DNA of 64,000 nt from an uncultured Alphaproteobacteria bacterium. Lineage in GTDB: Bacteria; Electryoneota; RPQS01. The position numbers were made by a program, and so were the translations under genes. Each line of letters starts with the position of its first letter. The first letter of the stretch is position 1. The notes under the pieces were generated by a model. The model was not told the origin of the DNA, searched no databases, and was given only the letters and a program-made list of their open reading frames with translations. The stretch spans positions 136,163-200,162 of the forward strand of contig CAYORN010000004.1 in NCBI GenBank assembly GCA_964406405.1, given 5' to 3'. Positions 866 to 15,389 of this stretch are shown one piece after another.

Positions 866-2341
866 CTAAACCCCGAACGGATTCTGCGGCTTGCCGAGAA
901 CTCCCGTGATAACCGATTTCGTCTCGAGATAGGCATCCATCGCCTCCATGCCCATCTCGCGGCCGTAGCCGGACTGTTTGTATCCGCCGAACGGCAGCCC
1001 CGGAAGCGCCGTCACCGTCGTGTTTATGGCCACCGTTCCTGCTTTGATTGCGCGCGCGAATCTGTGTGCCCGTGTGACGTTTTGCGTCCAGACGAGCGCG
1101 GCCAAGCCATAGATCGAATTGTTCGCTTTTGCGATCACTTCATCATCCGACGAGAACTTCGCCAGCACGGCAATCGGCCCGAATATCTCCTCCTGCACGC
1201 AGCGGGCAGTTTCCGGCAAATCCACAATTACCGCTGGCGCAAAGAAATTTCCTTTCGCCAATTCACCGTCGGTTAGGTGATGCCCACCGCAGAGAATCTT
1301 GCCGCCTTCCTTTCTTGCGGATTCGACGAACTCTTCCATCAACTTGATGCGCTCCGGAGAGATGAGCGGCCCGATGTGCGTACTCTTATCGAGCGGATCG
1401 CCGACCTTGAGCGACTTCGCTTTCTCCACGAACCTCTCTGCGAACCGATCATAGAGCGATTCATGAACGTACACTCGCGCGCGGGCGTCACAGGCCTGGC
1501 CACCGCCATAGAAGATAGCGAACAGCGTGCCGTTGACGGCGTCATCAAAGATGGCATCGTCACACACGATGGCGGGAGACTTGCCGCCGAGTTCCATCGT
1601 GAGCCGCTTCATCGTGGCCGCGGATTCGGCGATGATGCGTTTGCCGGTCGCCGTGCCGCCGGTAAAGGAAATCTTGTCCACGCCCGGATGTACGACCAGC
1701 GCCTGTCCAGCCTCTTCACCGAGACCGTGGACAACATTGACCACGCCCTCGGGAATGCCAGCCTCGTGTAGAATACCGACGAGCAAATTGGCCGTGATCG
1801 GCGTCAGTTCGGATGGCTTCAGCACGACCGTACAGCCCGCCGCGAGGGCGGGGGCCAACTTCCACGACTCGAGCATCAATGGGAAGTTCCACGGAGTGAT
1901 CGCCGCTACCACGCCGACCGGCTCTGTCACGGTGTAGCCGAAAAACGCTCCGTGAAGCGGCGGCGTCGAACCTCCCACCTTCGTGGCGGCGCCGGCAAAG
2001 AACTCGAAATCTTCCACGGCCTGACGAATCTCGCCCATCGCATGCGTCAACACCTTGCCGTTATTCATGGTCTCGGCGCGCGCCAGCTCTTCCGTGCGCG
2101 ACTCGATCAACTGCGCAGCTTTGAAAAGCAGTTTGGTGCGCTGGCTCGGCGCGATGCGCGCCCACTTGCCTTCGAACGCCGCGCGCGCCGCCTTCACCGC
2201 TGCATCTATATCAGGCGCGGTGGAGGCCGCCACGGTGCCGATCAGCTCACCGGTCGCCGGATTGTGGATTGGCAGCGTCTTCCCGGTCGAAGCGGGAACG
2301 GTTTTGCCATTGATGATATTCGCGTAGAAGTTTTCAGACAA
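866..2341 (-). CDS. NAD(P)-dependent aldehyde dehydrogenase
   Basis: 491 aa. Classic ALDH motifs are present: VVAAITPWNFPL, ELGGKSP, and a catalytic Cys region in ...FYGGGQACDARARVYV. TTG start with AGGA 9 nt upstream. Confidence 0.9.
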   Translation of the reverse strand: MSENFYANIINGKTVPASTGKTLPIHNPATGELIGTVAASTAPDIDAAVKAARAAFEGKWARIAPSQRTKLLFKAAQLIESRTEELARAETMNNGKVLTHAMGEIRQAVEDFEFFAGAATKVGGSTPPLHGAFFGYTVTEPVGVVAAITPWNFPLMLESWKLAPALAAGCTVVLKPSELTPITANLLVGILHEAGIPEGVVNVVHGLGEEAGQALVVHPGVDKISFTGGTATGKRIIAESAATMKRLTMELGGKSPAIVCDDAIFDDAVNGTLFAIFYGGGQACDARARVYVHESLYDRFAERFVEKAKSLKVGDPLDKSTHIGPLISPERIKLMEEFVESARKEGGKILCGGHHLTDGELAKGNFFAPAVIVDLPETARCVQEEIFGPIAVLAKFSSDDEVIAKANNSIYGLAALVWTQNVTRAHRFARAIKAGTVAINTTVTALPGLPFGGYKQSGYGREMGMEAMDAYLETKSVITGVLGKPQNPFGV

Positions 2342-2352
2342 GTGAAATGTCC

Positions 2353-2952
2353 TTAGTCATGAGGAAAGTCTTTCTGGGGTGCCGCGCCGCTCTCCCATTC
2401 CTGCCGGAGTAACGAGAACAACACGCGATCCTGCCATATCTCGTTGATCAGCACCGCCTGCCGCAGCACGCCTTCACGCACAAAGCCGTTGCGGTGCAGA
2501 GTTTTCATCGCGCCGCTGTTGAAGGCGCCGGTCATGGCCTCCAGTCTGTGCGCTCCCTGTTCGCGGAAGAGGCAATCGCGCAGGATTTGTAAGGCTTCCG
2601 TGCCGTAGCCATGTCCTCGTAACTCCTTCGGCCCGATCAAACCGCCGACTTGAAAAATGCCCGGGCTTTCCGGGCCGCTGCGCTCCACCAGCATCCACGA
2701 GCACTCGCCGATCGGCCGCAAGGAGTCCAACTCTTCCATGATAAAGGTTCCCGCCAGCCCCCATTCGACGTCATGATCGAGCCAGAAACGATACTCCTCC
2801 TGAAATGCTTCTTCATCGTCTGTCGCGAAGGGTATGCCGTCGTAGAGCGACATCAAGTGCGGATCGCTGTACCATTCGAAGAGCTGCGGAATGTCCTTCA
2901 CCTCGACGGGCCGCAGGCGCAGGCGCTTACCTTCGAGCAGATTACCACTCAT
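2353..2952 (-). CDS. GNAT family N-acetyltransferase (RimJ/RimL-like)
   Basis: LEGKRLRLRPVEVKDIPQLFEWYSD... and a ...GHGYGTEAL...A.NSGAMK..GF acetyl-CoA binding pattern. I chose the ATG at 2952 (MSGNLLEG), which forms an ATGA-type overlap with the Rieske gene stop. The ORF-track start at 2967 would overlap further. Confidence 0.75.
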   Translation of the reverse strand: MSGNLLEGKRLRLRPVEVKDIPQLFEWYSDPHLMSLYDGIPFATDDEEAFQEEYRFWLDHDVEWGLAGTFIMEELDSLRPIGECSWMLVERSGPESPGIFQVGGLIGPKELRGHGYGTEALQILRDCLFREQGAHRLEAMTGAFNSGAMKTLHRNGFVREGVLRQAVLINEIWQDRVLFSLLRQEWESGAAPQKDFPHD

Positions 2953-3280
2953 CTTCTTCGGCCTCAAATTGCACCAGCACGCTGCCGTCCTCGACTTTCA
3001 CCGGATAGACTTTCAGAAAGGCAATACCCGGCGTCGGCTTGATGGCTTTGCCGGTTGCCAGATCGAAGCAGTAGTGATGCGCGAGGCATTCCACCGTATT
3101 CTCCTCCAGTACCGCCTTCGACATCAGTTCGAAGGCGTGCGGGCAGCGCCCCTCCGTGCACCATACGTTCTCGCCCTGGCGGAACACGGCCACTTCCGCG
3201 CCGTCGAGTTCCACGGTGATGCCCGCGCCATCAGGGATCTCGTCCACCCGGCAGATTCTCCGAAACGGAATGTCAGACAT
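2942..3280 (-). CDS. Rieske [2Fe-2S] ferredoxin-type protein
   Basis: 112 aa with CPH...(17)...CLAHH, which fits the Rieske CxH/CxxH ligand spacing. Size and layout match oxygenase ferredoxin subunits. Confidence 0.8.
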   Translation of the reverse strand: MSDIPFRRICRVDEIPDGAGITVELDGAEVAVFRQGENVWCTEGRCPHAFELMSKAVLEENTVECLAHHYCFDLATGKAIKPTPGIAFLKVYPVKVEDGSVLVQFEAEEDEW

Positions 3281-3322
3281 GCTTGTCGGTTTGTCGGCTT
3301 CTCCGCCTGTCCGCCTGTTCGA

Positions 3323-3652
3323 TCATTCCCACACTCGCCGATGTTTCGGCTTGTGGCTGCCGTTCTTCTTGTACGCGGGAAGACTCGGATCGAGTTCATC
3401 GTCCGATCCTGCTGTCGACGTTTCATGCACCGCATGGAAATCCACATCCCGTTTCGCATTCAGCACCGCGAGCAGCTTGTCCACATCAAAGATCGCGTGA
3501 TAGTGCGCCGCTTTCTCGAGCGATGCGGTCATGGCGACGACGGTGGACGGCACAAGGTGCAGGCTCCACTCGTCAAGCACGGAGATCAGCCCCGGATTGT
3601 GCTTCAGGATATCGTGTAGCGGTGTGTCTTTGTCAAACGTCTTTTCTGGCAT
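3323..3652 (-). CDS. Small DUF1858-like protein (hybrid-cluster-associated redox domain lacking the cysteines), function unknown
   Basis: 109 aa. The N-terminal TPLHDILKHNPGLISVLDEW...SLEKAAHYHAIFDVDKLLAVLN resembles DUF1858 helices from memory. The C-terminal tail is basic. Only 3 nt separate it from the upstream PaaA-like gene. Confidence 0.4.
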   Translation of the reverse strand: MPEKTFDKDTPLHDILKHNPGLISVLDEWSLHLVPSTVVAMTASLEKAAHYHAIFDVDKLLAVLNAKRDVDFHAVHETSTAGSDDELDPSLPAYKKNGSHKPKHRRVWE

Positions 3653-3655
3653 GGC

Positions 3656-4483
3656 TTACCCCGCCACCGCTGCATCCATCGGCAGTCTTGTCCAATCGGC
3701 CGGAACCTCCCATACGGGCTTGCGCAGCTCGGCTTCGGCCACCACGCCGTACACTTCCCCGGCGAACGTCATCCGCGTTTCGTGGTTGTCGCGCTTCTTG
3801 AGGCCGTACCTGATGTACGATTTGTTGCGCGGGCTGTTGGGACGGCCGAAAATATTCATCACGCGCGGAAACCAGCGGTCGAGCGCTTCCTGCGTCGCTT
3901 CCTTATGCTTGGGGTTGCGGCCGAGGCGCTTCAGCCAGTAGTCACCGTGCGCGATGTGCATCTCCTCTTCCTTCATAATGCCCTCCATCACCGCGCGCCA
4001 CGGACCGAAGGAACTCTCGGTGGCGTCCTGCAATTGATGACCCGCGCCGCGGTCCATCAGCACGTTGAACATGATGAAATCGTACCACGTATTGATCGGG
4101 TAGTAAAAAATGTTCACGCGCTGATCCTGGGCGGCGCGAGTCGCGCCCAGTTCAATCTCATCTCCGACGCGAAGGGTGAAGTCAAACTGCTTGACGCGAT
4201 CTTCGATATCCACGCCGAGATCTTCCAGCAGTTGGTACATGACGCGGGCGTGGCGCACTTCGTCATGCGCAATTGCCGACACCGTGAGCATTTCCTTGGT
4301 CGAGACCGCCTTCATAATCCACGGCACGTAGCCGAATGCTCCCGCGAGTTCGGAATCGGCCTGCATGAGCATCAGATTAATCAGATTTTCTTTATAGCCT
4401 TCGGTCATCTCTTCCGGGCTATTGATCGTTTCGCCGCGGCGAATCTTCTCTAAGAGCCGCTGCTCCTTATCCTGCTCCGTCAT
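3656..4483 (-). CDS. PaaA-family diiron oxygenase (1,2-phenylacetyl-CoA epoxidase subunit A-like)
   Basis: Aligns by eye to E. coli PaaA blocks: YKENLINLMLMQADSELAG, AHDEVRHARVMY, IFYYPINTWYDFIMFNVLMDRGAGHQL, SFGPWRAVMEGIMKEEEMHIAHG and RWFPRVMNIFGRP (E, ExxH, E, ExxH ligands). Start set to the ATG at 4483 (MTEQDK), preceded by GGGAGA. The longer track ORF would overlap the upstream gene. Confidence 0.8.
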   Translation of the reverse strand: MTEQDKEQRLLEKIRRGETINSPEEMTEGYKENLINLMLMQADSELAGAFGYVPWIMKAVSTKEMLTVSAIAHDEVRHARVMYQLLEDLGVDIEDRVKQFDFTLRVGDEIELGATRAAQDQRVNIFYYPINTWYDFIMFNVLMDRGAGHQLQDATESSFGPWRAVMEGIMKEEEMHIAHGDYWLKRLGRNPKHKEATQEALDRWFPRVMNIFGRPNSPRNKSYIRYGLKKRDNHETRMTFAGEVYGVVAEAELRKPVWEVPADWTRLPMDAAVAG

Positions 4484-4512
4484 AGCTTCATCTCCCTTAT
4501 CTGATGATCTTC

Positions 4513-5304
4513 CTATTTGCCCTTGAAACTCGGCTTCCGTTTCTCGTTGAACGCGGCCACGCCTTCCGTGTAATCCTCGGACTGCCCGGCAATTTCCTGC
4601 ATCCACGCTTCGTATTCGAGTGCCGCTTCCAGATTCGCGGTGAACATGCGGTTCAGACCGCGCTTGATCAGGCCAATCGCCTTTGTCGGAGCCGCCGCGT
4701 ATTTCTCAGCCAGTTCACGCGTCCTCACAAGCACTTGATCGTCCGGCACAACCTCGTAGACCAGACCCAGCTCCCTCATTTCGTTGGAGTCGAGCTTACG
4801 CCCGCTGGTCGTAATCTCGAAAGCGCGATGATAGCCGAGCGATTGTGCGAGAAACCACGTCGAACCGGAGTCCGGCACCAGTCCCACGTTGACAAACGAC
4901 TGAATCATGCTGGACGATTCCGCGGCGATGATCAGGTCGCAGGCGAGCGCCAAACTCATTCCCGCCCCCGCAGCAACACCATTCATCGCGCAGAGTACCG
5001 GCTTCTCCAATTGCCGGATGCGGAGGATATTCGGATTGTAGTTCTTGCGCAGCGAATCGCCGAGATTGCGCCCCGGTATGTCCTTGATCTCTTTCAAATC
5101 CTGCCCACTGCAAAACGCCTTGCCCGCGCCGCTGAGAATCACCGCGCGCACGCTCTCGTCCTTGCCCGCTTCTTTGAAGGCTTCGCCGAGATCGCGGTGC
5201 AGTTGGTTGCTGAACGCGTTGTAGCGCTCGGGACGATTCAGTGTGATCATGGCAACCGCGCCGGACTTTTCGTAGCGGATAGTCCGCAAAGGCATTTGAG
5301 CCAT
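4513..5304 (-). CDS. Enoyl-CoA hydratase/isomerase family protein (PaaG-like)
   Basis: Crotonase fold motifs: VILSGAGKAFCSGQDL, MNGVAAGAGMSLALACDL and ...EGVAAFNEKRKPSFKGK. Start set to the ATG at 5304 (MAQMPLRTIRYEK) to avoid overlapping the next gene. Confidence 0.8.
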   Translation of the reverse strand: MAQMPLRTIRYEKSGAVAMITLNRPERYNAFSNQLHRDLGEAFKEAGKDESVRAVILSGAGKAFCSGQDLKEIKDIPGRNLGDSLRKNYNPNILRIRQLEKPVLCAMNGVAAGAGMSLALACDLIIAAESSSMIQSFVNVGLVPDSGSTWFLAQSLGYHRAFEITTSGRKLDSNEMRELGLVYEVVPDDQVLVRTRELAEKYAAAPTKAIGLIKRGLNRMFTANLEAALEYEAWMQEIAGQSEDYTEGVAAFNEKRKPSFKGK

Positions 5305-5305
5305 T

Positions 5306-6130
5306 TCAGTTCCCAAATCGTTTTTCACATTCGTTGAAAAATTTCGATTTATCACCACCATTGGCACAAATCTCATTCTTGGACACTTTCCAAACTCTCC
5401 ACAATTCTTCGCGAATCATATTCCAAAGCACGCTTTCCGAAGAGTGCAGTTCAAGTTGTGGCTGACTAATTGACTGCTTGCCGTGAAGATAAAAGGAGAT
5501 ATAAGCCTTGTCGTCAATTAGAAATATGCAGAGCGAAGGCAGCAATTGATACGTGCTGACAGTGAGTTTCGAGTGTACTGTTCCGGATGTTACCCATTGG
5601 CGAGCTTTGCCGACAAAATCAGGCGGTCTGTCAGATCCAAGTGATTCGACGTTTTCCCACGACTCGTCCCAGCGCTGTTGGAGGGTTGACGAGCTAGGAT
5701 CAAGCATCAGAATGTGAATCTCAAGGTTTCTCTTCTCCGTAGATTTTCTTAGAGGTTTCATATACTCTTCGAATGCAGGAATCCACGTAGTAAGAATTAT
5801 GACCCGTTGCTTTGCACTTTCTAGTGCAGTGCGAACGGTTGGCGGAAGTGATTCGTGAAGATCCCTCAGTCCAAACTCATGATAGAGCCTGCCTTGTTTG
5901 CCAAACGCTACGTGAGTTAGAAACTCCTCAGTGAAGTCGCTTCTCCACAAGAACTCATATATCAGTGCCACGAGACCGGCCACAAGAAGAGTCTGTCCAA
6001 ATTCCCTCTGGACATTTTCTTCGCGTGCCGTGAGGATGAGAATTACACCAACTGATGCAACGAAGAAAATAGCAGCAATCAACTTCCAGCGCAGGTTCTT
6101 TCCCATTTGAATCAAATCCTTTCGATTCAA
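5306..6130 (-). CDS. Hypothetical 2-TM membrane protein with a C-terminal PLD-like/DUF5919-like domain (low-GC insert)
   Basis: Two N-terminal hydrophobic helices (WKLIAAIFFVASVGVILILTA and LLVAGLVALIYEFLW). The C-terminal part, RVIILTTWIPAFEEY...LEIHILMLDPSS...HSKLTVSTYQLLPSLCIFLIDDKAYISFYLHG, resembles the DUF5919-type pattern from memory. Visibly AT-richer than its neighbours. Start is TTG 6130 or ATG 6106. Confidence 0.55.
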   Translation of the reverse strand: MNRKDLIQMGKNLRWKLIAAIFFVASVGVILILTAREENVQREFGQTLLVAGLVALIYEFLWRSDFTEEFLTHVAFGKQGRLYHEFGLRDLHESLPPTVRTALESAKQRVIILTTWIPAFEEYMKPLRKSTEKRNLEIHILMLDPSSSTLQQRWDESWENVESLGSDRPPDFVGKARQWVTSGTVHSKLTVSTYQLLPSLCIFLIDDKAYISFYLHGKQSISQPQLELHSSESVLWNMIREELWRVWKVSKNEICANGGDKSKFFNECEKRFGN

Positions 6131-6306
6131 TGTAAGTTGAAGTAATCACACAGATGATTCGGTTCTCTTTTAGATTGTGGCTGGGTGCTTCTCGAATTAA
6201 ACTTGAAAGCCTTCGTTTTAGTTTACGGTCGTAAGAAGTAAAACAAGAAACTGCTTTGATTTGTGAGTGAACAATTAAGGAGAGATCAGAGCTAATGTCA
6301 ATCGAG

Positions 6307-6984
6307 TCAGGTTGTCGAGTTTACCGCACGATCAAGTGTCCGTGGCTCAGTATGTGACCCCTCCCTCAGCCCATACGATTGCGACAACTTTTGTCCATCT
6401 ATTAACTCATTCTCAAGAGCAATCATGGCATTGTAATTCAGGGAATATACAACCGGAACCGCCAGGTCAAGTGAAGTATGGCTTTGTCTTACAGCGTTTT
6501 CCAGCTTTTTCTTCGTTTCATCGTCACTTCTGCTGCCGGAAATAGACCCGTGCCGCGTTGCAGTGTCCCTGTCAGCGTTGTACTTGTCAAGCTCCAAGAT
6601 TCTATTAAGCACGTCGTCAAATTTTGCGTTTAAGTGGGCGTGCTCTTCAATTGTCTTGATTACCAATTGAACGGCACTTGGATCTGATAACAACGAAGGA
6701 ATGGAGCGAACCATGTTGTCATACGAGACGAGCGGAAGTCTGAATGAGGGCAAGTGTCCAGTGGGTGCCATGGCCCAGTAGTCTCGAATTCTCTTGGAAC
6801 AAATTACGAGATGTTGATGCAATCCGAGAAGCTGCAAGGCGCGACTCTTTGATTCGTTTTCACGTTGCTCGCGAACCCGATCTCTGCGATCTCGATTCGA
6901 AATGTAAAGCGCCAAGATTACGGCGGCAGTAGTAGCGATAGCTGCAATCGCGTCCCAATTAATTTCCCAATCCTGCCAGCACAC
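6307..6984 (-). CDS. Hypothetical 1-TM protein, helical C-terminal region (low-GC insert)
   Basis: 225 aa. One N-terminal TM (AIAAIATTAAVILALYIS), followed by a charged RDRRDRVREQRENE stretch and a helical region with no motif I recognise. GTG start. It is packed 2 nt from the upstream crotonase stop. Confidence 0.5.
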   Translation of the reverse strand: MCWQDWEINWDAIAAIATTAAVILALYISNRDRRDRVREQRENESKSRALQLLGLHQHLVICSKRIRDYWAMAPTGHLPSFRLPLVSYDNMVRSIPSLLSDPSAVQLVIKTIEEHAHLNAKFDDVLNRILELDKYNADRDTATRHGSISGSRSDDETKKKLENAVRQSHTSLDLAVPVVYSLNYNAMIALENELIDGQKLSQSYGLREGSHTEPRTLDRAVNSTT

Positions 6985-6986
6985 TT

Positions 6987-7763
6987 TTATTTCCCTCTGA
7001 AGTTCGGATTCCGCTTTTCCATAAACGCCTGCATCCCTTCTTTTTGATCTTCGGTCGCGAAAAGCAAATAGAAATTCTTGCGCTCGAATTCCAACCCATC
7101 GAGCAGGAACGACTCGTAAACCTTGTTGATCGCTTCCTTCGCCAATCGAACAGCCACCGGCGGCATGGCAGCTATCTCCCGCGCGAGCTTCTGCGCTTCG
7201 GACAAATAGACTTCAACCGGCACGACCTTGTTCACCAGCCCAAACTCATACGCTTCTTTTGCGCTGATCAACTTTCCGGTGAGGACCATCTCCATCGCAC
7301 GCACTTTGCCGATGGCTCGGGTCAATCGCTGTGTTCCACCCGCGCCCGGCATCACGCCGATCTTGATCTCCGGCTGCCCGAACTGTGCGGTCTCTGAAGC
7401 AATCACCATGTCGCAATGCATCATCAGTTCGCATCCGCCGCCGAGCGCAAACCCGGACACCGCTGCGATGATGGGCTTCTTGATCCTGCGGATGCGGTCC
7501 CACTTCGCGAACTGGTCGCGTAGGAGCATCGTCGTGGAGTCGGCGCCGGCCATCTCCATGATGTCGGCCCCGGCCGCAAACGCGCGCTCGTTTCCTGTCA
7601 GCACAATCGCGCGAATCTCCTCATCACGATCCAGCTCTTCGAGCAGCGTCGCGAGTTCGTCCATCAATGCCATGTTCAGCGCATTGAGCTGTTTGGGACG
7701 GTTCAGGGAGACGGTGGCGACATAGCCCTCGCGGTCGAGTTTCAAATACTGAAGGTCTGGCAT
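6987..7763 (-). CDS. Enoyl-CoA hydratase (crotonase, PaaF/Ech-like)
   Basis: 258 aa with VLTGNERAFAAGADI, VSGFALGGGCELMMHCD and EGMQAFMEKRNPNFRGK. Confidence 0.9.
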   Translation of the reverse strand: MPDLQYLKLDREGYVATVSLNRPKQLNALNMALMDELATLLEELDRDEEIRAIVLTGNERAFAAGADIMEMAGADSTTMLLRDQFAKWDRIRRIKKPIIAAVSGFALGGGCELMMHCDMVIASETAQFGQPEIKIGVMPGAGGTQRLTRAIGKVRAMEMVLTGKLISAKEAYEFGLVNKVVPVEVYLSEAQKLAREIAAMPPVAVRLAKEAINKVYESFLLDGLEFERKNFYLLFATEDQKEGMQAFMEKRNPNFRGK

Positions 7764-7769
7764 AGGAAT

Positions 7770-8615
7770 TTACTTGAGAAGATCCTTGTTCACCTTCTTG
7801 TAATCCGGCTTCCGCTTTTCATTGAACGCTTTCACCGCTTCCTGAGTCTCGGAGGAATTAGCGTGGACTGCGAGCCAATCGCGCGCGTGGCCGACCGTCA
7901 ATCCCCATGAGAAGTCGCGCCAGAAATTGAGCTGCTGCTTCAAATAGCGCGTCACGTCAGGCAACTTGCTTTCGAGTTTGGTGGCCATGCGATCCACGGC
8001 GGCATCGAGGTTCGCGCGCGGCACCACTTCATTGACCAAACCCCACTCGAGCGCCTTTTGCGCCGGGATTTCCTCACACAGATAGAGGATTTCGCGCGCG
8101 CGGCGGTCGCCCACGATCAGCGGCAGCCATTGCGTCGCGCCGCCCGCCGCAACGCTGCCGTGCGCCGCGCCCACCTGCCGAATGTAGATGTCGTCTGCCG
8201 CAATCGCCAGATCGCAGCTCATGTTGAACTCGTTGCCTCCGCCGACCACAATGCCGTTGAGCCGCGCTATGCTCGGCTTGCCAATGTTCCGTAGCCGGTC
8301 GTGCGCCTCGATGAACGCGCCCATCCATTTCCAATAGTCGTGCGGCCGCGCAAAGAATTGCTGCTGCTCGCTCAGATCGGCCCCGGTGCAAAACGCCTTG
8401 TCGCCCGCGCCCGTAAGGATCAGCACGCGCACCGCATCGTCATAAGATGCATCTTCAAACGCGGCGCTCATCTCCTTCAACATCGCAAAGTTGAAGCAGT
8501 TATGCACCTGCGGCCGGTTCAGCGTCACCGTGGCACGGGCGCCGTGCTTCGCATACAGAATGTGTTGAAACTGAAAGCTGTCCGCGGGTCGAGCTTTAAA
8601 GTCTGCGGCCATCAA
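7770..8615 (-). CDS. Enoyl-CoA hydratase/isomerase family protein (MenB/BadI-like branch)
   Basis: 281 aa with ILTGAGDKAFCTGAD, NGIVVGGGNEFNMSCDLAIAADD and RAREILYLCEEIPAQKALEWGLVNEVVP, which resembles MenB/BadI-type crotonases. Confidence 0.75.
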   Translation of the reverse strand: MMAADFKARPADSFQFQHILYAKHGARATVTLNRPQVHNCFNFAMLKEMSAAFEDASYDDAVRVLILTGAGDKAFCTGADLSEQQQFFARPHDYWKWMGAFIEAHDRLRNIGKPSIARLNGIVVGGGNEFNMSCDLAIAADDIYIRQVGAAHGSVAAGGATQWLPLIVGDRRAREILYLCEEIPAQKALEWGLVNEVVPRANLDAAVDRMATKLESKLPDVTRYLKQQLNFWRDFSWGLTVGHARDWLAVHANSSETQEAVKAFNEKRKPDYKKVNKDLLK

Positions 8616-8950
8616 ATCCGCTCCTCAACATTCAGTGGCAAGATTGTCGGCGTGATCTTCTCCGCGCTGTAGAACTCGACGATGTCCTTGGCGAACGACA
8701 TCAGATTCGCCCCGGCCTCGGCATTTTCCGATGATTTCATGGCGGACTTGAGCGCGTCCATGTCCGCGAACGTCAGCACAGACATCTGATAATACTTCGC
8801 GGGGCCGTCTTTGCCAGGAAGTGTTTTGGAGACTTCGAGGGAGATCAGGCCGGGGATCTTCTTGGCGAGCGGCAGGTGAGTATTCCAGTACGCCGCGTCA
8901 AACGCCTGCGGATGGGCAGGCTGGCGAAAAAGAACAATGAGTTGGTACAT
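8612..8950 (-). CDS. EthD family protein
   Basis: 112 aa. MYQLIVLFRQPAHPQAFDAAYWNTHLPLAKKIPGL... is the typical EthD/TIGR02118 N-terminus. 4-nt overlap with the downstream gene. Confidence 0.65.
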   Translation of the reverse strand: MYQLIVLFRQPAHPQAFDAAYWNTHLPLAKKIPGLISLEVSKTLPGKDGPAKYYQMSVLTFADMDALKSAMKSSENAEAGANLMSFAKDIVEFYSAEKITPTILPLNVEERI

Positions 8951-8977
8951 GGGGGAGAGGAGTTGCTGAAAGTCTGA

Positions 8978-9385
8978 TTAGAGGGAAGATTGTGCTGTCG
9001 CTCGTTCGCGCATCTGCAGAATGCGCTCTTTCGGCAGCACGACTTGATGGACGTTGCCATGGGCGATACGACGATTGCCGTCCGTGATTTCGAAGCGGCA
9101 GGCCAGATGATGCTCGCGCACCCGGGTCGAAATCGCCGTCAATTTCAGATGCTGTCCGACAAGGGCCGGCGAGTGATGATGAATAAACAACCCGCTGCCG
9201 ATCCCGTCTTCATGCGGCTCCAGAAACGGTTCGAGCAGCAGGCGACAGACGTATTCGGCGTGGTGACAGGCCCAGTAGGTGGGATAAAACGGATGTAGCG
9301 GCTTGCCGCCGAACTCGACGACCATCTCCGCCGTCACCTGCACGTACAGCACCTCTTCCAGCCCCGGCCGCAGTCCCGGTTTCAT
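8978..9385 (-). CDS. Hotdog-fold thioesterase (FlK-like)
   Basis: 135 aa. The pattern ...HHAEYVCRLLLEPFL..GIGSGLFIHHHSPALVGQHLKLTA...FEITDGNRRIAHG.H resembles FlK-type acyl-CoA thioesterases. Confidence 0.6.
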   Translation of the reverse strand: MKPGLRPGLEEVLYVQVTAEMVVEFGGKPLHPFYPTYWACHHAEYVCRLLLEPFLEPHEDGIGSGLFIHHHSPALVGQHLKLTAISTRVREHHLACRFEITDGNRRIAHGNVHQVVLPKERILQMRERATAQSSL

Positions 9386-10092
9386 TACGCCGCCTCACTT
9401 GTAGACCCGGTGCCGGGTCCGAAGATCCGCTCGAATTCACTCCGTACGTCGCGTTCGAACGCCGCGATGTCCAGCGTGTACCCGTGCTCGCGCAGCGACG
9501 TCACAAATTTGCGATGCGGACGCCCGGCGCGGTAATCCGGCGTCCGCTGAGGGTGCTTCAGATAGCGTTCCATCGCATCCGTGTTGCTGCTGGCATTCAG
9601 GATCGCATGTAAGAACACGAGTTGGCGGTTGCGATAAATTGCCGTCCCTGCGATCTTTTGTTCGCCCAGGGCAATGTCCGAAATTCCCTTGTGCGAAAGT
9701 TCCTGCACACCCTGCGTCTCTAAAGCATGGATGATAATCTGCAGGAATAATTTGAAATACTCTTTCGACGACAATTGATCTTCCGTGCGCACCGCGAACG
9801 ACGCCACCAGCATGTCCGGCGAAAGCACCACGGCGCAGCCGCCCGTGGCCCGGCGGAGTACGGGAATGCGATCGTGCTCCGCGTTGCTCAAATACACCTC
9901 CAGCGCCAGAGCAGAGCCTTTGCCGATCACCACCAGCATGCGCGAGGGCTGCCACACCAGGCACTTATTGCCGTTTCCCATGGACTCAGTAAACGCTGCA
10001 TCCGGCAGATCGTAAGAGCTGATCTCGAACGCAGCGTTTCGTGTGTCTTCCGTCATCACAGGTCGGTGCTCAGACATGCAGTGGCTTGCCAA
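9385..10092 (-). CDS. Lipoate-protein ligase / octanoyltransferase family protein (BPL_LplA_LipB domain)
   Basis: LVVIGKGSALALEVYLSNAEHDRIPVLRRATGGCAVVLSPDML... and KGISDIALGEQKIAGTAIY (conserved lysine region). Start uncertain. The ATG at 10056 would remove the overlap with lpd. Confidence 0.7.
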   Translation of the reverse strand: MASHCMSEHRPVMTEDTRNAAFEISSYDLPDAAFTESMGNGNKCLVWQPSRMLVVIGKGSALALEVYLSNAEHDRIPVLRRATGGCAVVLSPDMLVASFAVRTEDQLSSKEYFKLFLQIIIHALETQGVQELSHKGISDIALGEQKIAGTAIYRNRQLVFLHAILNASSNTDAMERYLKHPQRTPDYRAGRPHRKFVTSLREHGYTLDIAAFERDVRSEFERIFGPGTGSTSEAA

Positions 10093-11422
10093 TCGCCTTG
10101 AACCCCGCTTCCATGAACGTTTCGCTGATCGTCGGATGCGCGTGTACAGCCTTGGTCATACTCTCGAGTGTGTCTTCGAGCGACATGCTCATCACCGCTT
10201 CCGCGATCAATTCGGTCGCCCGCGCCGAAACAATGTGTACGCCAAGGATCTCGCCATACTTCTGATCGGCGAGGATCTTGACGAACCCTTCCGTCTGCCC
10301 CTCGACCATCGCCTTGCTGTTGACGGACATCGGAAATTCGCCCTTCACATACTCGATGCTGCGCGCCTTAACCTGCTCTTCTGTCAGACCCACCGCGGCA
10401 ATTTCCGGGTCGAGATAAATATTCACTGGTAGCTTGTCATAGTCGAGCGGATCCTTCACGCCGACCATGTGATTCGTCGCCGTCGAACCTTGCGCGGACG
10501 CAAAGTGGGCGAAGATCGTTCCTGTCACGTCGCCGATCGCATAAATGTTTGGCGCGTTGGTCTGCATAAACTCATTCGTCTTCAAAAAGCCGTGCTTCTT
10601 GTCAAGACGAATATCGGTCATCTCCGGCAGCACCGCGGTGCGTTCGCTGCAATTGAGCACCAGATCGCATTCGACGAGTTCGTCGCCGACCATCACGCCG
10701 CCGTCCTTCGCACCGCTGATCTGCCTTTCGAAGTGGACCTTGATCCCCTGTTTCTTGAAGCGTTCGCGCACATACGATGTGCATGCCTCATCCAGCCACG
10801 GCATCAATTTCGAATTCGACGTCACGATGCTCACTTGCTTACCGATCAGGTGCAGCATGTTGGCCATTTCGCAGGCCACCGTGTCGCCGCCGTTGATCAC
10901 GTAACGCTCCGGGGTTTCGGGGAGCGCGTAGAAGTCGTCAATCTCCATGACCCGTCCGGTCGGCAGGGAAGAGGCAAACGTGCGGTCGGGGCGGGAGCCG
11001 GTGGCGATGATGATGTTCTTCGCGATCAGCACCTCATCACCTACGCGCACATTCGTCGCGCCATCCAAGGAAGCCGTACCGTGGATGACTTCCACGCCGT
11101 TCTTCTTCATCAGGAATTCGACGCCCTTGACGAGCTTGGTCACGATGCGGTCCTTTTCCGCAACGGCTTTCTTCCAGTTGAAGCGCAGGGCTTTCGGATC
11201 CACGCCTTCGATGCCAAAACCGGCCGCGCTGTTGCGAATCCGGTCAAAGAGCTTGGCGGACTCCATTAGGCGGCGCGACGGGATGCAGCCCCAGTTCAGG
11301 CAGCAGCCGCCCATTTTCTGTTTTTCCACCAGGGCGGTTTTCATGCCGAGTTGCGCGCCGCGAATCGCGGCCACGTATCCGCCCGGCCCCGCGCCGATGA
11401 TGACTAAATCAAAGTTCTTCAT
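10070..11422 (-). CDS. lpdA: Dihydrolipoyl dehydrogenase (E3), copy 1
   Basis: 450 aa with GAGPGGYVAA, the redox-active GGCCLNWGCIPS, and the C-terminal HAHPTISE interface motif. Confidence 0.95.
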   Translation of the reverse strand: MKNFDLVIIGAGPGGYVAAIRGAQLGMKTALVEKQKMGGCCLNWGCIPSRRLMESAKLFDRIRNSAAGFGIEGVDPKALRFNWKKAVAEKDRIVTKLVKGVEFLMKKNGVEVIHGTASLDGATNVRVGDEVLIAKNIIIATGSRPDRTFASSLPTGRVMEIDDFYALPETPERYVINGGDTVACEMANMLHLIGKQVSIVTSNSKLMPWLDEACTSYVRERFKKQGIKVHFERQISGAKDGGVMVGDELVECDLVLNCSERTAVLPEMTDIRLDKKHGFLKTNEFMQTNAPNIYAIGDVTGTIFAHFASAQGSTATNHMVGVKDPLDYDKLPVNIYLDPEIAAVGLTEEQVKARSIEYVKGEFPMSVNSKAMVEGQTEGFVKILADQKYGEILGVHIVSARATELIAEAVMSMSLEDTLESMTKAVHAHPTISETFMEAGFKAIGKPLHV

Positions 11423-11468
11423 GGTTCTCCTGTTCCCCCCCGCAAAATGGGAGGATGAAGGGGGGAAA

Positions 11469-12797
11469 TTACATCATCAACATCGTGACCGGCTCGGCCA
11501 GCAGCGCCATGATCTCCAGCAGGAAGCGCGCCGCGTCTCCGCCATCCACAATGCGATGATCGAAACTCAGTGACAAAGGAAGGATGTGGCCGGGCACGAT
11601 CTGTCCGTTCTTCACGATGGGCTTCTCAAGGATGCGGCCGACGCCGAGGACCGCCACTTCCGGATAATTGATGACCGGCACGCCGTACGTTCCGGCGAGC
11701 GAACCGTAATTCGTGATCGTGAACGTCCCGTCGCGGATCTCATCGAGTGTCAGCTTGCGCTCGCGGGCGCGGATCGAAAGATCGGCGAGGATCTTCGCGA
11801 TCTCGTAAATACTCCGTTGATCGGCGTCCTTGACGACCGGCACGACCAGCCCTTCCGGCGTATCCACCCCAATGCCGATGTTGTAATAGCGGTTGTAGAT
11901 CACGCGGTTGTGCTCGAGGTCGAGACGGCAGTTGAGCTTCTTATGCTTGCGCAGCGCCATCGCCACCGCTTTGATCACAAACGGCAGATAGGAGAGCTTC
12001 ACTCCGGCGGCCGCGGCCTGCTCTTTGGCATCCTGCCGCAGGGCGACCAGCTTGGACACTTCCAGTTCTTCAAAGGCCGTCGCGTGCGGAGCAGTGTATT
12101 TCGACTGCGCCATGCGCGCGGCGATGGACTTGCGGATCTGCGACAGCTCTTCGACTTCGGTGCGCTCGCCGGGCGCGGCCAGCGGTGCGGAGCGGGGAGG
12201 AGTGAACGTGAAACTCGGAGCCGCGCCGGACTTCTGCCGCTCTGCCGCTTTGATGATATCTTCCTTCATCACGCGACCGCTCGGGCCGGTCCCCGTGACG
12301 GAGTTGATGTCAACGTTCATGTCCCGCGCCATCTTGCGCGCCACCGGTGTCGCCAGCGCTTTGCGGCCATTCGCGACGTGCGCTTTCTCGTGATCGAGCT
12401 CAAATCCTTCACCTGTCGCCGGCAGAAAATCGTTCGTATTGGAAACCGGAATCGAGCCGACCACCCCAAACCCCGGCTCGTCCACCGCTTCTTCGTGCGT
12501 GTCCGCGATCGCCGCCGCCGGAGTCGCATGACCGGGAGTATCCGACGCAACCGGCGTCCCCTCGGTTTCGATCTCAGCGATCACGTTGCCGACGTGAATA
12601 ATCTGTCCGACCTCGCCAAACGTCTTGCCGATCACACCCGTGCGCGGAACCGGAATGTCGGTCACCACCTTGTCGGTTTCGACCTTCATCAACGGATCGC
12701 CTTCGCGCACCTTCTGGCCGGGCTTCACGTACCACTCGAGGATCTTGCCCTCGTGAATGCCTTCGCCGATATCGGGAAACTTGAATGAGTATGGCAT
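11469..12797 (-). CDS. Dihydrolipoamide acyltransferase (E2) of a 2-oxoacid dehydrogenase complex
   Basis: 442 aa with a single lipoyl domain (ETDKVVTDIPVP), a peripheral subunit-binding domain (LATPVARKMARDMNVDINSVTGTGPSGRV) and a catalytic DHRIVDG motif. Confidence 0.95.
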   Translation of the reverse strand: MPYSFKFPDIGEGIHEGKILEWYVKPGQKVREGDPLMKVETDKVVTDIPVPRTGVIGKTFGEVGQIIHVGNVIAEIETEGTPVASDTPGHATPAAAIADTHEEAVDEPGFGVVGSIPVSNTNDFLPATGEGFELDHEKAHVANGRKALATPVARKMARDMNVDINSVTGTGPSGRVMKEDIIKAAERQKSGAAPSFTFTPPRSAPLAAPGERTEVEELSQIRKSIAARMAQSKYTAPHATAFEELEVSKLVALRQDAKEQAAAAGVKLSYLPFVIKAVAMALRKHKKLNCRLDLEHNRVIYNRYYNIGIGVDTPEGLVVPVVKDADQRSIYEIAKILADLSIRARERKLTLDEIRDGTFTITNYGSLAGTYGVPVINYPEVAVLGVGRILEKPIVKNGQIVPGHILPLSLSFDHRIVDGGDAARFLLEIMALLAEPVTMLMM

Positions 12798-12821
12798 GGA
12801 ACTAATTATGAAGGATGAATT

Positions 12822-12833
12822 ATGAAGTATGAA
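12822..12833. repeat. Left arm of a 12-13 bp perfect inverted repeat bracketing the four-helix-bundle gene
   Basis: atgaagtatgaa at 12822-12833 is the exact reverse complement of ttcatacttcat at 13219-13230. Confidence 0.85.
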
Positions 12834-12842
12834 GCAGACATG

Positions 12843-13217
12843 CTATCCTGACATTCTCCGCTTCACCTTGACGACAATGGTGGTTAAGATCGCAATGAGC
12901 TCATTCGCTTCTTGACGCAACGGAGCAAGTTTGCCTTCCGGAACGATCTTGGATTCGACCAATAATTGCATCCAGTAAGCAGATTCGTCAAGCTCCTGAA
13001 TCGCACCTTGGAGCTTGCTTACATAATCAGGCTCTGATTTGGCACGAATCGCTTCCCGGTAATGTGCACCCACTGATGCGCCAGATCGCAAGACTTGTAG
13101 CCCGTATGTTTGGGCCGGATGTGCTTTGGGAAGCGATGTGTACAGTTTGCCAATTCGAACGGCAAATTCCTTGGTACGATTACGAAGGTCGCCGCCAGGC
13201 TCTGCGTCATCCTTCAT
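12843..13217 (-). CDS. Four-helix-bundle protein (the family known from 23S rRNA intervening sequences)
   Basis: 124 aa. FAVRIGKLYTSLPK...GLQVLRSGASVGAHYREAIRAKSEPDYVSKLQGAIQELDESAYWMQLL matches the TIGR02436-type pattern. AT-richer than the flanking E2 and E1-beta genes. Confidence 0.75.
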   Translation of the reverse strand: MKDDAEPGGDLRNRTKEFAVRIGKLYTSLPKAHPAQTYGLQVLRSGASVGAHYREAIRAKSEPDYVSKLQGAIQELDESAYWMQLLVESKIVPEGKLAPLRQEANELIAILTTIVVKVKRRMSG

Positions 13218-13218
13218 A

Positions 13219-13230
13219 GTTCATACTTCA
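13219..13230. repeat. Right arm of the inverted repeat bracketing the four-helix-bundle gene
   Basis: See 12822-12833. Confidence 0.85.
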
Positions 13231-13239
13231 TAGTTGAAG

Positions 13240-14238
13240 TTAGAAGTCCATGACCTTTTTGATCTCGTAGAACACGCGATCCGGCGTATGGAAGTAGAGA
13301 TCTTCACTCTTCGGCAGCGGCGGCATCGTGTCGTTGCCGGCTAAGCGGGCAGGCGGAGCTTCGAGATAGAGGAACGCCTTCTCATTGATCACGGTGATCA
13401 CTTCTGCCGCAACGCCGTAGCTGCGCGGCCCCTCATGCACGACGAGCGCGCGTCCGGTCTTCTTCACCGATTCGGCAATCGCCACGCGGTCGAGCGGGTA
13501 AATGGTGCGCAGATCGAGTAGCTCCACCGAGATACCGGCCTTCTCGCACATCGGCAGCGCTTCCTGCACCGTGCGCATCATCGCGCCATAGGTGATCACG
13601 GTGATGTGCCGCCCCTCCTGCACGACTTTTGCCTTGCCGATCTGAATGCGATAAGCTTGTTCGGGCACGTCCTGCTTTACCGCGCGGTAGAGGCGCTTCG
13701 GTTCCTGAAAAATCACCGGATCGTTGTCTTCAATCGCGCTGATCATCAGCCCCTTGGCGTCATACGGCGTGGATGGCACCACGACTTTCAAACCGGGAAT
13801 GTGGCCGTAAATCGCTTCGTTTGCTTCGCTGTGCGACTCGAGCGCCTTCACGCCACCGCCATAGGGGAAGCGAATGACCATCGGAATCGAAAACCGCCCG
13901 CGTGTGCGATAGCGATAGCGAGCGACATGCGAAATAATCTGGTTGAACGCGGGATACACGAAGCCGTCGAACTGCATTTCCACGACCGGTCGCAACCCGG
14001 CAATCGCCATGCCCACGCCGGCCCCGACGATCACCGACTCAGCAAGTGGCGTGTCGAACACGCGCTTGACGCCGTGCTTCTTCTGCAAACCTTCAGTCAC
14101 GCGGAAGACGCCGCCTTCAACGCCGACGTCCTCACCAAAGCACAGCACGTTCTCGTCGTCCGCGAGCTTATTGTCCAGTGCGGAATTGAGCGCCTGCACC
14201 ATTGTCATCACGGCCATGGTTACTTGCCCTCCTTCCAC
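13240..14238 (-). CDS. 2-oxoacid dehydrogenase E1 component, beta subunit
   Basis: 332 aa with the transketolase-like pyrimidine-binding and C-terminal domains (FGEDVGVEGGVFRVT..., PIVIRFPYGGG). Confidence 0.95.
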   Translation of the reverse strand: MEGGQVTMAVMTMVQALNSALDNKLADDENVLCFGEDVGVEGGVFRVTEGLQKKHGVKRVFDTPLAESVIVGAGVGMAIAGLRPVVEMQFDGFVYPAFNQIISHVARYRYRTRGRFSIPMVIRFPYGGGVKALESHSEANEAIYGHIPGLKVVVPSTPYDAKGLMISAIEDNDPVIFQEPKRLYRAVKQDVPEQAYRIQIGKAKVVQEGRHITVITYGAMMRTVQEALPMCEKAGISVELLDLRTIYPLDRVAIAESVKKTGRALVVHEGPRSYGVAAEVITVINEKAFLYLEAPPARLAGNDTMPPLPKSEDLYFHTPDRVFYEIKKVMDF

Positions 14239-15389
14239 ATCAGGAATTTCTTGTATTCCGCCAACTGCTCCGTCAGTGTGTCGGGCATGGTCTCATACAT
14301 GTGGCTGAAGATTTCCTCGGCGCTGTTCTGCGGAAACGCTTCGCACTCGCGGAACTGCGCTTCCACCTCCGCCGTGACCTGCTCGGTGTGTTCAGTTTCT
14401 TGCTTCTCGCTCCACAATCCGCGTTCCTCCAGGAAGAGCTTCACGCGGATCAGCGGATCGCGCGGCGCCCACAGCGCTTCCTCTTCGGCGGTACGGTATT
14501 TTGTCGGATCGTCGGACGTGGTATGCGCCGCCATGCGGTACGTTACGGCTTCGATCAGCACCGGGCCTTTGCCGCTGCGCGCCCAGTCCACGGCCTCCTT
14601 GGTGGCGCGATACACTGCCAGCAAATCGTTGCCGTCCACCTGAATGCCGGGGATCTCAAACCCGATCCCCTTTTGCGCCAGCGTTTTCGCTTTCGTTTGC
14701 AGCTCGCGCGGCACTGAGATCGCCCACTGATTATTGTTGCAGAAGAAGATCACCGGGCAGTCAAAAACGGCCGCCCAATTCAACCCTTCCGAGAAATCGC
14801 CTTCGGAAGTGCCACCGTCGCCAAAGTAGGTGATGACGACCTCCTTGCCGCCGCGATAATTAATCGCGTGCCCAATGCCCGCCGCGTGCGGTAACTGCGA
14901 TGAAATCGGCACGGCGGTTGGCAGTACGTTCACACCTTCAGGATACGTGTTGCCGTACTCGCTGCCGCTATAGAACATATAAATGTTCTTCAGCGGCACG
15001 CCGCGCCAGATCTGCGCGCCCAGCTCGCGAAATGCGGGAACCATCCAGTCACGCTTTTCCAGCGCCATCGCGCTGCCCACAGCAGCAGCCTCCTGCCCCT
15101 TATTCGGCGGCAAAGTATAGAGTCGCCCTTGCCGTTGATAGGAAACCGCTTTCAGGTCGGCGATCCGCGCCTTGAGCATGACCTTGTACCCTTCGCGAAT
15201 CTGCTCATCGGAGAGGTCCGGCATCCATTCGGGAGCGATGATCTTGCCATTCGGGTCCAGAATCTCCAGCCGCCGACCGTTGAGCGGATAAAAGGCCTCA
15301 AAGAGCGAGAGCTGACCCACTTCTGTCAGGGCTTTCGGCTTACGATCCGTCACCAGATGGGTCGTCGTTTTCTGGGCGGGAACACTCAT
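14220..15389 (-). CDS. 2-oxoacid dehydrogenase E1 component, alpha subunit (TPP-binding)
   Basis: 389 aa with the TPP motif FGDGGTSEGDFSEGLNWAAV...FFCNNNQWAIS. Its stop overlaps the E1-beta start. Confidence 0.95.
   Translation of the reverse strand: MSVPAQKTTTHLVTDRKPKALTEVGQLSLFEAFYPLNGRRLEILDPNGKIIAPEWMPDLSDEQIREGYKVMLKARIADLKAVSYQRQGRLYTLPPNKGQEAAAVGSAMALEKRDWMVPAFRELGAQIWRGVPLKNIYMFYSGSEYGNTYPEGVNVLPTAVPISSQLPHAAGIGHAINYRGGKEVVITYFGDGGTSEGDFSEGLNWAAVFDCPVIFFCNNNQWAISVPRELQTKAKTLAQKGIGFEIPGIQVDGNDLLAVYRATKEAVDWARSGKGPVLIEAVTYRMAAHTTSDDPTKYRTAEEEALWAPRDPLIRVKLFLEERGLWSEKQETEHTEQVTAEVEAQFRECEAFPQNSAEEIFSHMYETMPDTLTEQLAEYKKFLMWKEGK

Follow-up and report, generated by a model that had tools for sequence, protein, structure and literature searches.

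Two accessory genes between crotonase genes of an Electryoneota operon, one encoding a predicted membrane-anchored phospholipase D-fold protein without the HKD motif

The window analysed here is a 64,000-nt stretch of DNA (contig CAYORN010000004.1, positions 136,163 to 200,162 of the forward strand, assembly GCA_964406405.1) from an uncultured bacterium that is labelled Alphaproteobacteria and placed by GTDB in Electryoneota. Within a catabolic operon of this window, two genes that we call orfA and orfB lie between two crotonase genes (positions 5306-6984), and the question they raise is whether they work as a unit, serve the operon around them, or are passengers in it. A first-pass annotation, made from the sequence, had regarded them as a low-G+C two-gene cassette of the kind typical of defence, abortive-infection or toxin-immunity systems. 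Our analysis shows that orfA and orfB are accessory genes which were inserted right between the two crotonase genes, and that the locus as it stands is an ordinary accessory insertion and not a demonstrated defence system. The explanation that we favour, at somewhat better than even probability, is that two independent hitchhikers occupy a permissive operon junction and that orfB encodes a membrane-tethered, ligand-binding pseudo-enzyme.

The two genes are packed tightly against their neighbours, all on the minus strand. Upstream lies the enoyl-CoA hydratase/isomerase gene ech_mid (6987-7763; Pfam ECH_1, E = 1e-82), and downstream lies a second gene of the same type, ech_dn (4513-5304; ECH_1, E = 2e-68). 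The GTG start of orfA at 6984 (6307-6984; 225 aa, one transmembrane (TM) helix) follows the TAA of ech_mid (6987-6989) after a 2-nt gap, and the stop of orfB (5306-5308) precedes the ATG of ech_dn at 5304 by 1 nt. Read from a TTG at 6130, orfB (5306-6130) encodes 274 aa with an N-terminal TM hairpin and a phospholipase D (PLD)-fold domain; in public assemblies it is called from the ATG at 6106 and has 266 aa (P0001). The ech_dn start is supported since orthologues starting MYETILYEKSG align from residues 6-8 onward, and the GTG start of orfA is supported since the N-terminus of its homologue in relative G014 is co-linear (MYCILYEINWDAIGA versus VCWQDWEINWDAIAA). Thus, the spacing of 1-2 nt at both ends noticed in the first-pass annotation holds with starts supported by orthologues. 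Both reading frames are intact, and five further public contigs carry identical copies of orfA and orfB at this position.

To place the insertion, the ech_mid orthologue was located in 40 relatives and its neighbours were mapped by tblastn; ech_mid orthologues are 70-89% identical and ech_dn orthologues 63-82%. In eight relatives (G006, G007, G010, G011, G013, G020, G021 and G022), ech_mid and ech_dn are directly adjacent, with a spacing that ranges from a small overlap between extrapolated gene ends to a gap of ~35 nt (for example, ...GGGGAAATAACCCATGTACGAAACC). In nine others, the junction is filled by other cargo of at least six unrelated types. The relative from the same genus, G001, carries there a gene for a 465-aa secreted beta-helix protein with a type IX secretion system (T9SS) sorting tail and native G+C content (L029, G001:C15, 1748-3145, minus strand). 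Outer-membrane beta-barrel proteins fill the junction in G017 and G008, a TM-tailed S-adenosylmethionine methyltransferase fills it in G002 and G004, and unrelated low-G+C ORFans fill it in G018, G019 and G015; relatives of the G018 ORFan were sought across the phylum, and none were found. Neither orfA nor orfB is present in this operon in any of the 17 relatives examined. The comparison of orthologous operons, which had been suggested as a check, thus bears out an insertion placed precisely between the two crotonase genes, as the junction is empty in eight relatives and holds a different gene in the same genus.

The turnover at this junction is most evident in one genus, g10 (G010, G015 and G017-G022; L144-L151), whose eight species show five states: four have an empty junction, and the others carry a 92-aa ORFan, an outer-membrane beta-barrel gene, a 204-aa ORFan or a 192-aa ORFan. 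Since ech_mid|ech_dn is empty in eight relatives and holds unrelated cargo in nine, we consider it a permissive slot. It is not the only one: in the operon (window 866-15389, compared over L144-L156), many junctions also vary, among them E1b|E2, LplA|FlK, ech_up|ech_mid and ech_dn|Aldh. In contrast, the overlapping junctions EthD|ech_up (-37 nt) and E1a|E1b (-19 nt) were never interrupted among the relatives mapped, a pattern that fits insertion where translational coupling stays unbroken, followed by retention. The turnover as a whole fits a process that does not require a site-specific element.

The base composition of the insert also departs from that of its surroundings. orfB has 45.1% G+C (0.46 at third codon positions, GC3) and orfA has 48.2% (GC3 0.50), compared to 55.5-61% (GC3 0.70-0.77) in ten neighbouring genes and 57.4% in the genome, where just 2.3% of 500-bp windows fall below 48% G+C. 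The low G+C content had been estimated earlier as roughly 38-45% against 60%; the dip itself stands, and its size was slightly overstated, since the measured values are 45-48% versus 57-60%. When low-G+C islets are defined by 300-bp windows and 50% G+C, the islet at this locus (window 5189-7138) is about the 26th largest among 631 in the genome and one of 43 with a length of at least 1.5 kb. The dip at orfA and orfB is therefore real and unusual, yet one case of a recurring feature of this genome.

No signature of a mobile element was found at the insert. Its boundaries show no terminal direct or inverted repeats and no target duplication, and no tRNA, integrase, recombinase or attC-like structure was found, the flanks consisting of metabolic genes only. 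An integron cassette or another site-specific mobile element was rejected because attC, terminal repeats, target duplication, integrase and transposase are all missing. Both borders read GGGAA.T.AAA, with a DNA score that lies within that of shuffled sequences and is not above chance. The tail of orfB (5306-5345, minus strand; ...FFNECEKRFGN before the stop) recalls crotonase tails that end in ...AFNEKRKPSFKGK; the protein score lies in the top 0.4-5% of the tails of open reading frames in the genome, which is not significant.

Between orfA and orfB lies a spacer of 176 nt (6131-6306, minus strand), which is AT-rich with 37.5% G+C. It has no Rfam match, folds no better than shuffled versions (z = +1.0), and shows no similarity to the flank of the orfA homologue in G014, where a mobile-element signature common to the two copies was looked for. 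The promoter-like site TTGACA-17-TTAATT (6273-6301, minus strand) reported in the first-pass annotation is present as written, with a perfect -35 element and a -10 element that matches TATAAT at three of six positions. As a promoter it did not stand, since it fails a consensus promoter scan, in which the region had no more sites than shuffled sequence.

We next turn to what orfB encodes. Hydropathy shows one strong and one weaker TM segment at about residues 15-35 and 44-62. Scans of orfA and orfB against Pfam, NCBIfam, PHROG and PADLOC gave nothing significant; direct scans of orfB gave sub-threshold PLD-type hints over residues 96-190 (PLDc_2, E = 0.21; DrmC, 0.11; MkoB, 0.019). A word-seeded search of 5.8 billion proteins matched each protein to itself only. 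The family was recovered with phmmer, which among 1.84 billion cluster representatives found 249 matches to orfB at E ≤ 1e-3, of which 21 reach E ≤ 1e-10, the best at 32% identity. Among 60 aligned relatives, 38 carry DUF5919 (PF19319; best E = 8e-11), 12 carry PLDc_2 and 6 have an XRE-type helix-turn-helix (HTH) domain at the N-terminus. In whole-library terms, orfB matches two relatives that carry DUF5919, P0005 and P0008, at E = 1.7e-16 and E = 6e-15. Since its own sequence misses the Pfam model, orfB is probably a distant DUF5919 member, by transitive homology. In the literature searched, no paper mentions DUF5919, and a broader query likewise returned nothing relevant.

A structural model of orfB was built with AlphaFold (AF2) on the alignment of the 60 relatives (A1). 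In the model (pLDDT 86.7, pTM 0.72), residues 3-25 and 31-68 form a helical hairpin, behind which lies an alpha/beta domain. A Foldseek search of this model against the PDB, a check proposed in the first-pass annotation, gave 72 matches at E ≤ 1e-3, and the top ones all have the PLD fold (E 8e-8 to 1e-4): the effector domain of TrmBL2/TrmB, vaccinia F13, PLD3/PLD4, Streptomyces PLD, NucT, and the pseudo-PLD domains of FAM83 and BJ-TSA-9. In BFVD, the top matches are poxvirus F13-type and giant-virus PLD proteins. The fold of orfB is thus that of the PLD superfamily by the model and by both structure searches, and the catalytic HKD motif is absent.

The loss of the motif is a property of the family. 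Arg145 is invariant, and Gly79, Thr107, Trp108, Leu133, Pro137, Ser139, Pro190 and Asp198 are at least 90% conserved; orfB retains every conserved family residue. The shared blocks are A..I.IL(Q/T)TWIP, ILLLDP.S..A..R and LPS...Y..DD...VGFF.HG. Of the motif HxK(x)4D(x)6G(G/S)xN, the family keeps just the Asp and the following Gly/Ser, and at the HxK(x)4D site it has P, S/T/V, M/V/I and S/A/Q, and neither His nor Lys is conserved; the orfB sequence there is L-P190-S-L-C-I-F-L-I-D198-D-K-A-Y-I-S. Since the His and Lys of the HKD motif are absent, orfB is probably a membrane-anchored ligand-binding pseudo-enzyme. Its basic N-terminus (MGKNLRWK) makes a topology with both termini inside and a cytoplasmic PLD-fold domain the likeliest. 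Taken together, the homology and the modelled fold indicate that orfB is anchored by TM segments and has a PLD fold of the DUF5919 type that lacks HKD, as the first-pass annotation had proposed for the second gene.

Comparison with known proteins places orfB between several better described groups. DUF5919 is usually found C-terminal to an XRE-type HTH domain, and orfB has a TM hairpin instead; its homologues share the conserved blocks of that family, likewise without HKD. The best structural match is the C-terminal effector domain of TrmB/TrmBL2 (PDB 5bpi, 5bpd, 3qph and 2f5t; E 8e-8 to 1e-6, probability 1.0), in which the PLD-like fold serves ligand binding or oligomerisation and not catalysis. 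The TrmB effector domain binds sugars. TrmB is cytosolic with an N-terminal winged-helix DNA-binding domain, its identity to orfB is 9-17%, and a TrmB-family regulator was rejected because the orfB N-terminus is a TM hairpin with no HTH match. F13, PLD3/PLD4, Streptomyces PLD, NucT and the DUF1669 domain of FAM83 have the same alpha/beta PLD fold (E 1e-7 to 1e-4 in Foldseek), with target-normalised TM-scores of up to 0.57 to single-domain members. Compared to the two-lobed PLD enzymes, orfB has a single domain and lacks the HKD His and Lys. FAM83 proteins have the PLD fold without catalytic activity. The cardiolipin synthase ClsA, with two N-terminal TM helices and two HKD domains, resembles the arrangement predicted for orfB in that a TM hairpin precedes a PLD-fold domain that sits in the cytoplasm at the surface of the membrane. 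A synthase of the ClsA type was rejected for orfB, whose 266 aa hold a single PLD-like domain that lacks HKD.

The relatives of orfB vary in architecture. Among the 150 best family representatives, N-terminal hydrophobic segments occur in 108 (two segments in 79) and are absent from 42. Six members are fused to TauD-type Fe/2OG dioxygenases (P0026, P0029, P0033, P0046, P0121 and P0126), and there are single fusions to TIR_2 (P0129) and to a histidine phosphatase (P0143). Since the domain stands behind HTH, TM, TIR and enzyme domains, it behaves like a sensor, regulatory or oligomerisation module. A string of DUF6817, 2TM-DUF5919, a Pantoate_transf-family gene and a GDSL lipase recurs in three diverged clusters (L040, L042 and L055), in which DUF6817 is weakly HD-like. 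From sequence context, this string and the TauD fusions hint at a role related to phospho- or phosphono-compounds or to lipids for part of the family. The sole orfB relative in the window's own taxonomic family (G013, 27% identity) has native G+C content and stands alone between a P450 and a threonine aldolase gene.

orfA is a different case. By hydropathy it has one TM segment at about residues 10-30, in agreement with the single-pass protein described earlier, followed by a stretch rich in Arg, Asp and Glu and then by a part predicted to be all-helical. The AF2 model from the single sequence is all-helical, with a pLDDT of 54 that is too poor for a structure search. No Pfam, PHROG, NCBIfam, PADLOC or PDB match was found for orfA, and a PDB profile search gave chance coiled-coil matches only. 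Its homologues are confined to this order: one in G014 at 45% identity, and others in G027, G029, P0152 and P0153 at 23-35%; a profile search contributed just two clusters. Across four homologues, 21 columns are invariant down to 23% identity. A relation between orfA and the DUF6817 proteins that precede some orfB homologues was considered and rejected, as comparison showed no similarity.

The locations of the orfA homologues suggest where it came from. In G014, the homologue stands alone between a gene for a 261-aa protein and rpe, with 43% G+C compared to 54-57%. In four contigs of a sister family, the order is serA-like, prfB, orfA-like, then alr and lysS (orfA-like genes at L052 4025-4651, minus strand; L053 1056-2030, plus strand; L059 4001-4609; and L061 2464-3063), and the G029 gene is fused to a C-terminal cupin domain. 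In the genome of the window, the only gene in the prfB-alr interval (G000:C5:256100-258650) encodes an S8 protease with a T9SS tail, and no orfA-like gene is present there. The orfA-like genes are low in G+C in all sister-family contigs (GC3 0.35-0.56 compared to 0.59-0.67). Since they are so even when syntenic and vertically inherited, low G+C is characteristic of this family and no proof of recent foreign origin. Judged from sequence and synteny, orfA appears to be a lineage-specific gene that changed address.

The two genes are independent of each other elsewhere. In the 13 loci of orfB homologues examined, no orfA-like sequence was found (tblastn, E ≤ 1), and in the loci inspected the orfA homologues have no orfB-like neighbour. 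A conserved toxin-antitoxin, toxin-immunity or abortive-infection pair was therefore rejected, because the two are neighbours in none of the other loci inspected. The PADLOC check gave no match to a defence model for either protein: orfA has no hit in PADLOC-DB 2.0, and the best for orfB is MkoB at a non-significant E = 0.019. Hence, neither the cassette as a unit nor its reading as a defence, abortive-infection or toxin-immunity pair was borne out, and nothing assigns orfA and orfB to such systems. For orfB alone, a defence or abortive-infection role is possible and only hinted at by the sequences of its relatives. In known flexible genomic islets between core genes, unrelated and often low-G+C cargo likewise occupies the same junction; the slot described here differs in lying inside an operon and in carrying single, promoterless-looking, co-directional cargo.

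These results are consistent with the following course of events. orfA and orfB would be unrelated accessory genes that do not form a dedicated system of their own. Each probably arrived in its own event at a non-overlapping junction of a co-directional catabolic operon, and their transcription most likely comes by read-through from that operon. orfA would have had an older home downstream of prfB and would have moved or been re-acquired here. In orfB, the pocket residues (Arg145, Thr107-Trp108, Pro137, Ser139 and Asp198) have been kept, the loss of the His and Lys rules out PLD-type phosphodiesterase action, and the protein most likely binds a small, probably phosphate-bearing ligand at the cytoplasmic face of the inner membrane. 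It is probably dimeric, by analogy with single-domain PLD-fold proteins, and its ligand binding would resemble that of the TrmB-type effector domain and the FAM83 pseudo-PLD domain. The observed parts of this account are the insertion, the PLD fold, the loss of the catalytic residues and the occurrence of each gene independently of the other; read-through expression, topology, dimerisation and ligand binding are what we infer from them.

Several observations weigh against the two-hitchhiker reading. Even with the threshold relaxed to E ≤ 10, the Pfam DUF5919 model does not match orfB. A targeted mechanism could lie behind the very high turnover at one junction, and orfA and orfB could still cooperate in this one genome. 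Some relatives of orfB also stand in contexts of conflict or mobility: the closest homologue (P0003, 32% identity, in a genome of 32% G+C) lies ~3 kb downstream of the Kiwa genes KwaA/KwaB (L031, 390-1858 and 5001-5885), another lies near ribbon-helix-helix-Fic (RHH-Fic), a third is on a ParA/Rep/TraG element in a plasmid or conjugative context, and the TIR fusion is a hint of conflict systems.

These contexts feed an alternative to which we give a low probability, though it fares better than the others: orfB alone would be a membrane effector or sensor of a conflict system, gated by a signal or by infection, and orfA an unrelated passenger. The dead PLD domain would be the sensor, for a nucleotide or for a cue from a phage, and the TM hairpin would oligomerise and perturb the membrane, as 2TM effectors do in CBASS, Pycsar and type III CRISPR. 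The combination of a TM hairpin with a non-catalytic ligand-type domain suits such a mechanism, as do the frequent N-terminal TM segments of the family and its patchy distribution (6 of 79 genomes of the phylum). In contrast, orfB has no PADLOC hit, and when PADLOC was applied to family members it matched only HTH models and the weak generic PLD models RmrA, MkoB and DrmC. No signal-making partner adjoins orfB, and tblastn against phage and plasmid collections gave no match. A type III CRISPR-associated 2TM pseudo-PLD was rejected because the genome, which is 100% complete, has no Cas10: a search gave no Cmr2 match and two sub-threshold Csm1 matches in the HD region, and family scans found no cas genes in the neighbourhood of the window. 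Of the informative contexts, three (DUF6817, TM-DUF5919, Pantoate_transf and GDSL) look metabolic, and the six TauD fusions likewise speak against an effector.

A broader version, which we regard as slightly less probable again, would make proteins with two TM segments and a dead PLD domain (DUF5919) an undescribed class of ligand-gated membrane effectors or sensors against phages or mobile DNA, and the operon junctions of this phylum, probably a candidate phylum of the FCB group, landing pads. In its second part, non-overlapping junctions of highly expressed operons would take up single promoterless genes that are swapped fast without att sites or repeats.

It is quite unlikely that the two genes do nothing at present and are either carried along neutrally or decaying. 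The slot gathers lineage-specific ORFans, with the G018 cargo unique in the phylum, and orfB has a C-terminal extension of ~20 aa that is not common to the family, both of which would suit genes under no constraint. The intact frames, the identical sequences in five other assemblies, the conserved residues and confident fold of orfB, and the 21 invariant columns of orfA all argue otherwise.

The original idea, in which both genes would have arrived together as a cassette for defence, abortive infection or toxin immunity, is now improbable. The two genes are adjacent and co-directional, both encode membrane proteins and both are low in G+C, as such a cassette would be, and they occur together only in this genome. 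Against it, the pairing is conserved nowhere, the compositions differ (45% versus 48% G+C), the 176-nt spacer between the genes contains nothing conserved or structured, the orfA-like genes of the sister family have a syntenic home after prfB, and neither PADLOC nor PHROG gives a match. Just as improbable is a service to the operon, in which the two genes would assist the CoA-ester or PaaA-type oxygenase pathway, for instance by anchoring it to the membrane or as a scaffold, a sensor or an aid to transport. Tight packing and co-direction (hence probable co-expression) and relatives of orfB fused to or beside TauD, Pantoate_transf and GDSL would favour it. Against it stand the absence of both genes from the operon in 17 of 17 relatives, the functionally unrelated genes that fill the slot elsewhere, a codon composition foreign to the operon, and homologues that are not linked to crotonase or Paa genes.

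Other features of the operon were recorded in the course of this comparison. A third crotonase gene lies upstream of ech_mid (7770-8615), and a PaaA-type oxygenase subunit is encoded downstream of ech_dn; genus g10 lacks the whole PaaA-DUF1858-Rieske-GNAT block. A low-G+C gene for a four-helix bundle (12843-13217, minus strand) lies between E1-beta and E2; G002 carries a 65%-identical copy at that junction, and the other relatives lack the gene. G+C dips were also confirmed at this gene, at a TIR gene and at an islet of the suc operon within the window or operon. In G001, the ech_up|ech_mid junction holds a gene for a 155-aa DinB-family protein (L029, 3968-4435, minus strand), and T9SS sorting tails are frequent among neighbouring genes in this lineage.

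For the orfB family, the finding means that an architecture common in metagenomes, 2TM-DUF5919, now has a confident model and a set of conserved pocket residues (Arg145, Thr107-Trp108, Ser139 and Asp198), which ease ligand-binding experiments. The comparative result at the junction may be more useful than orfA and orfB themselves. With five states in eight species and overlaps that were never interrupted, it offers a clean natural system for the entry of genes into operons and for borrowed expression.

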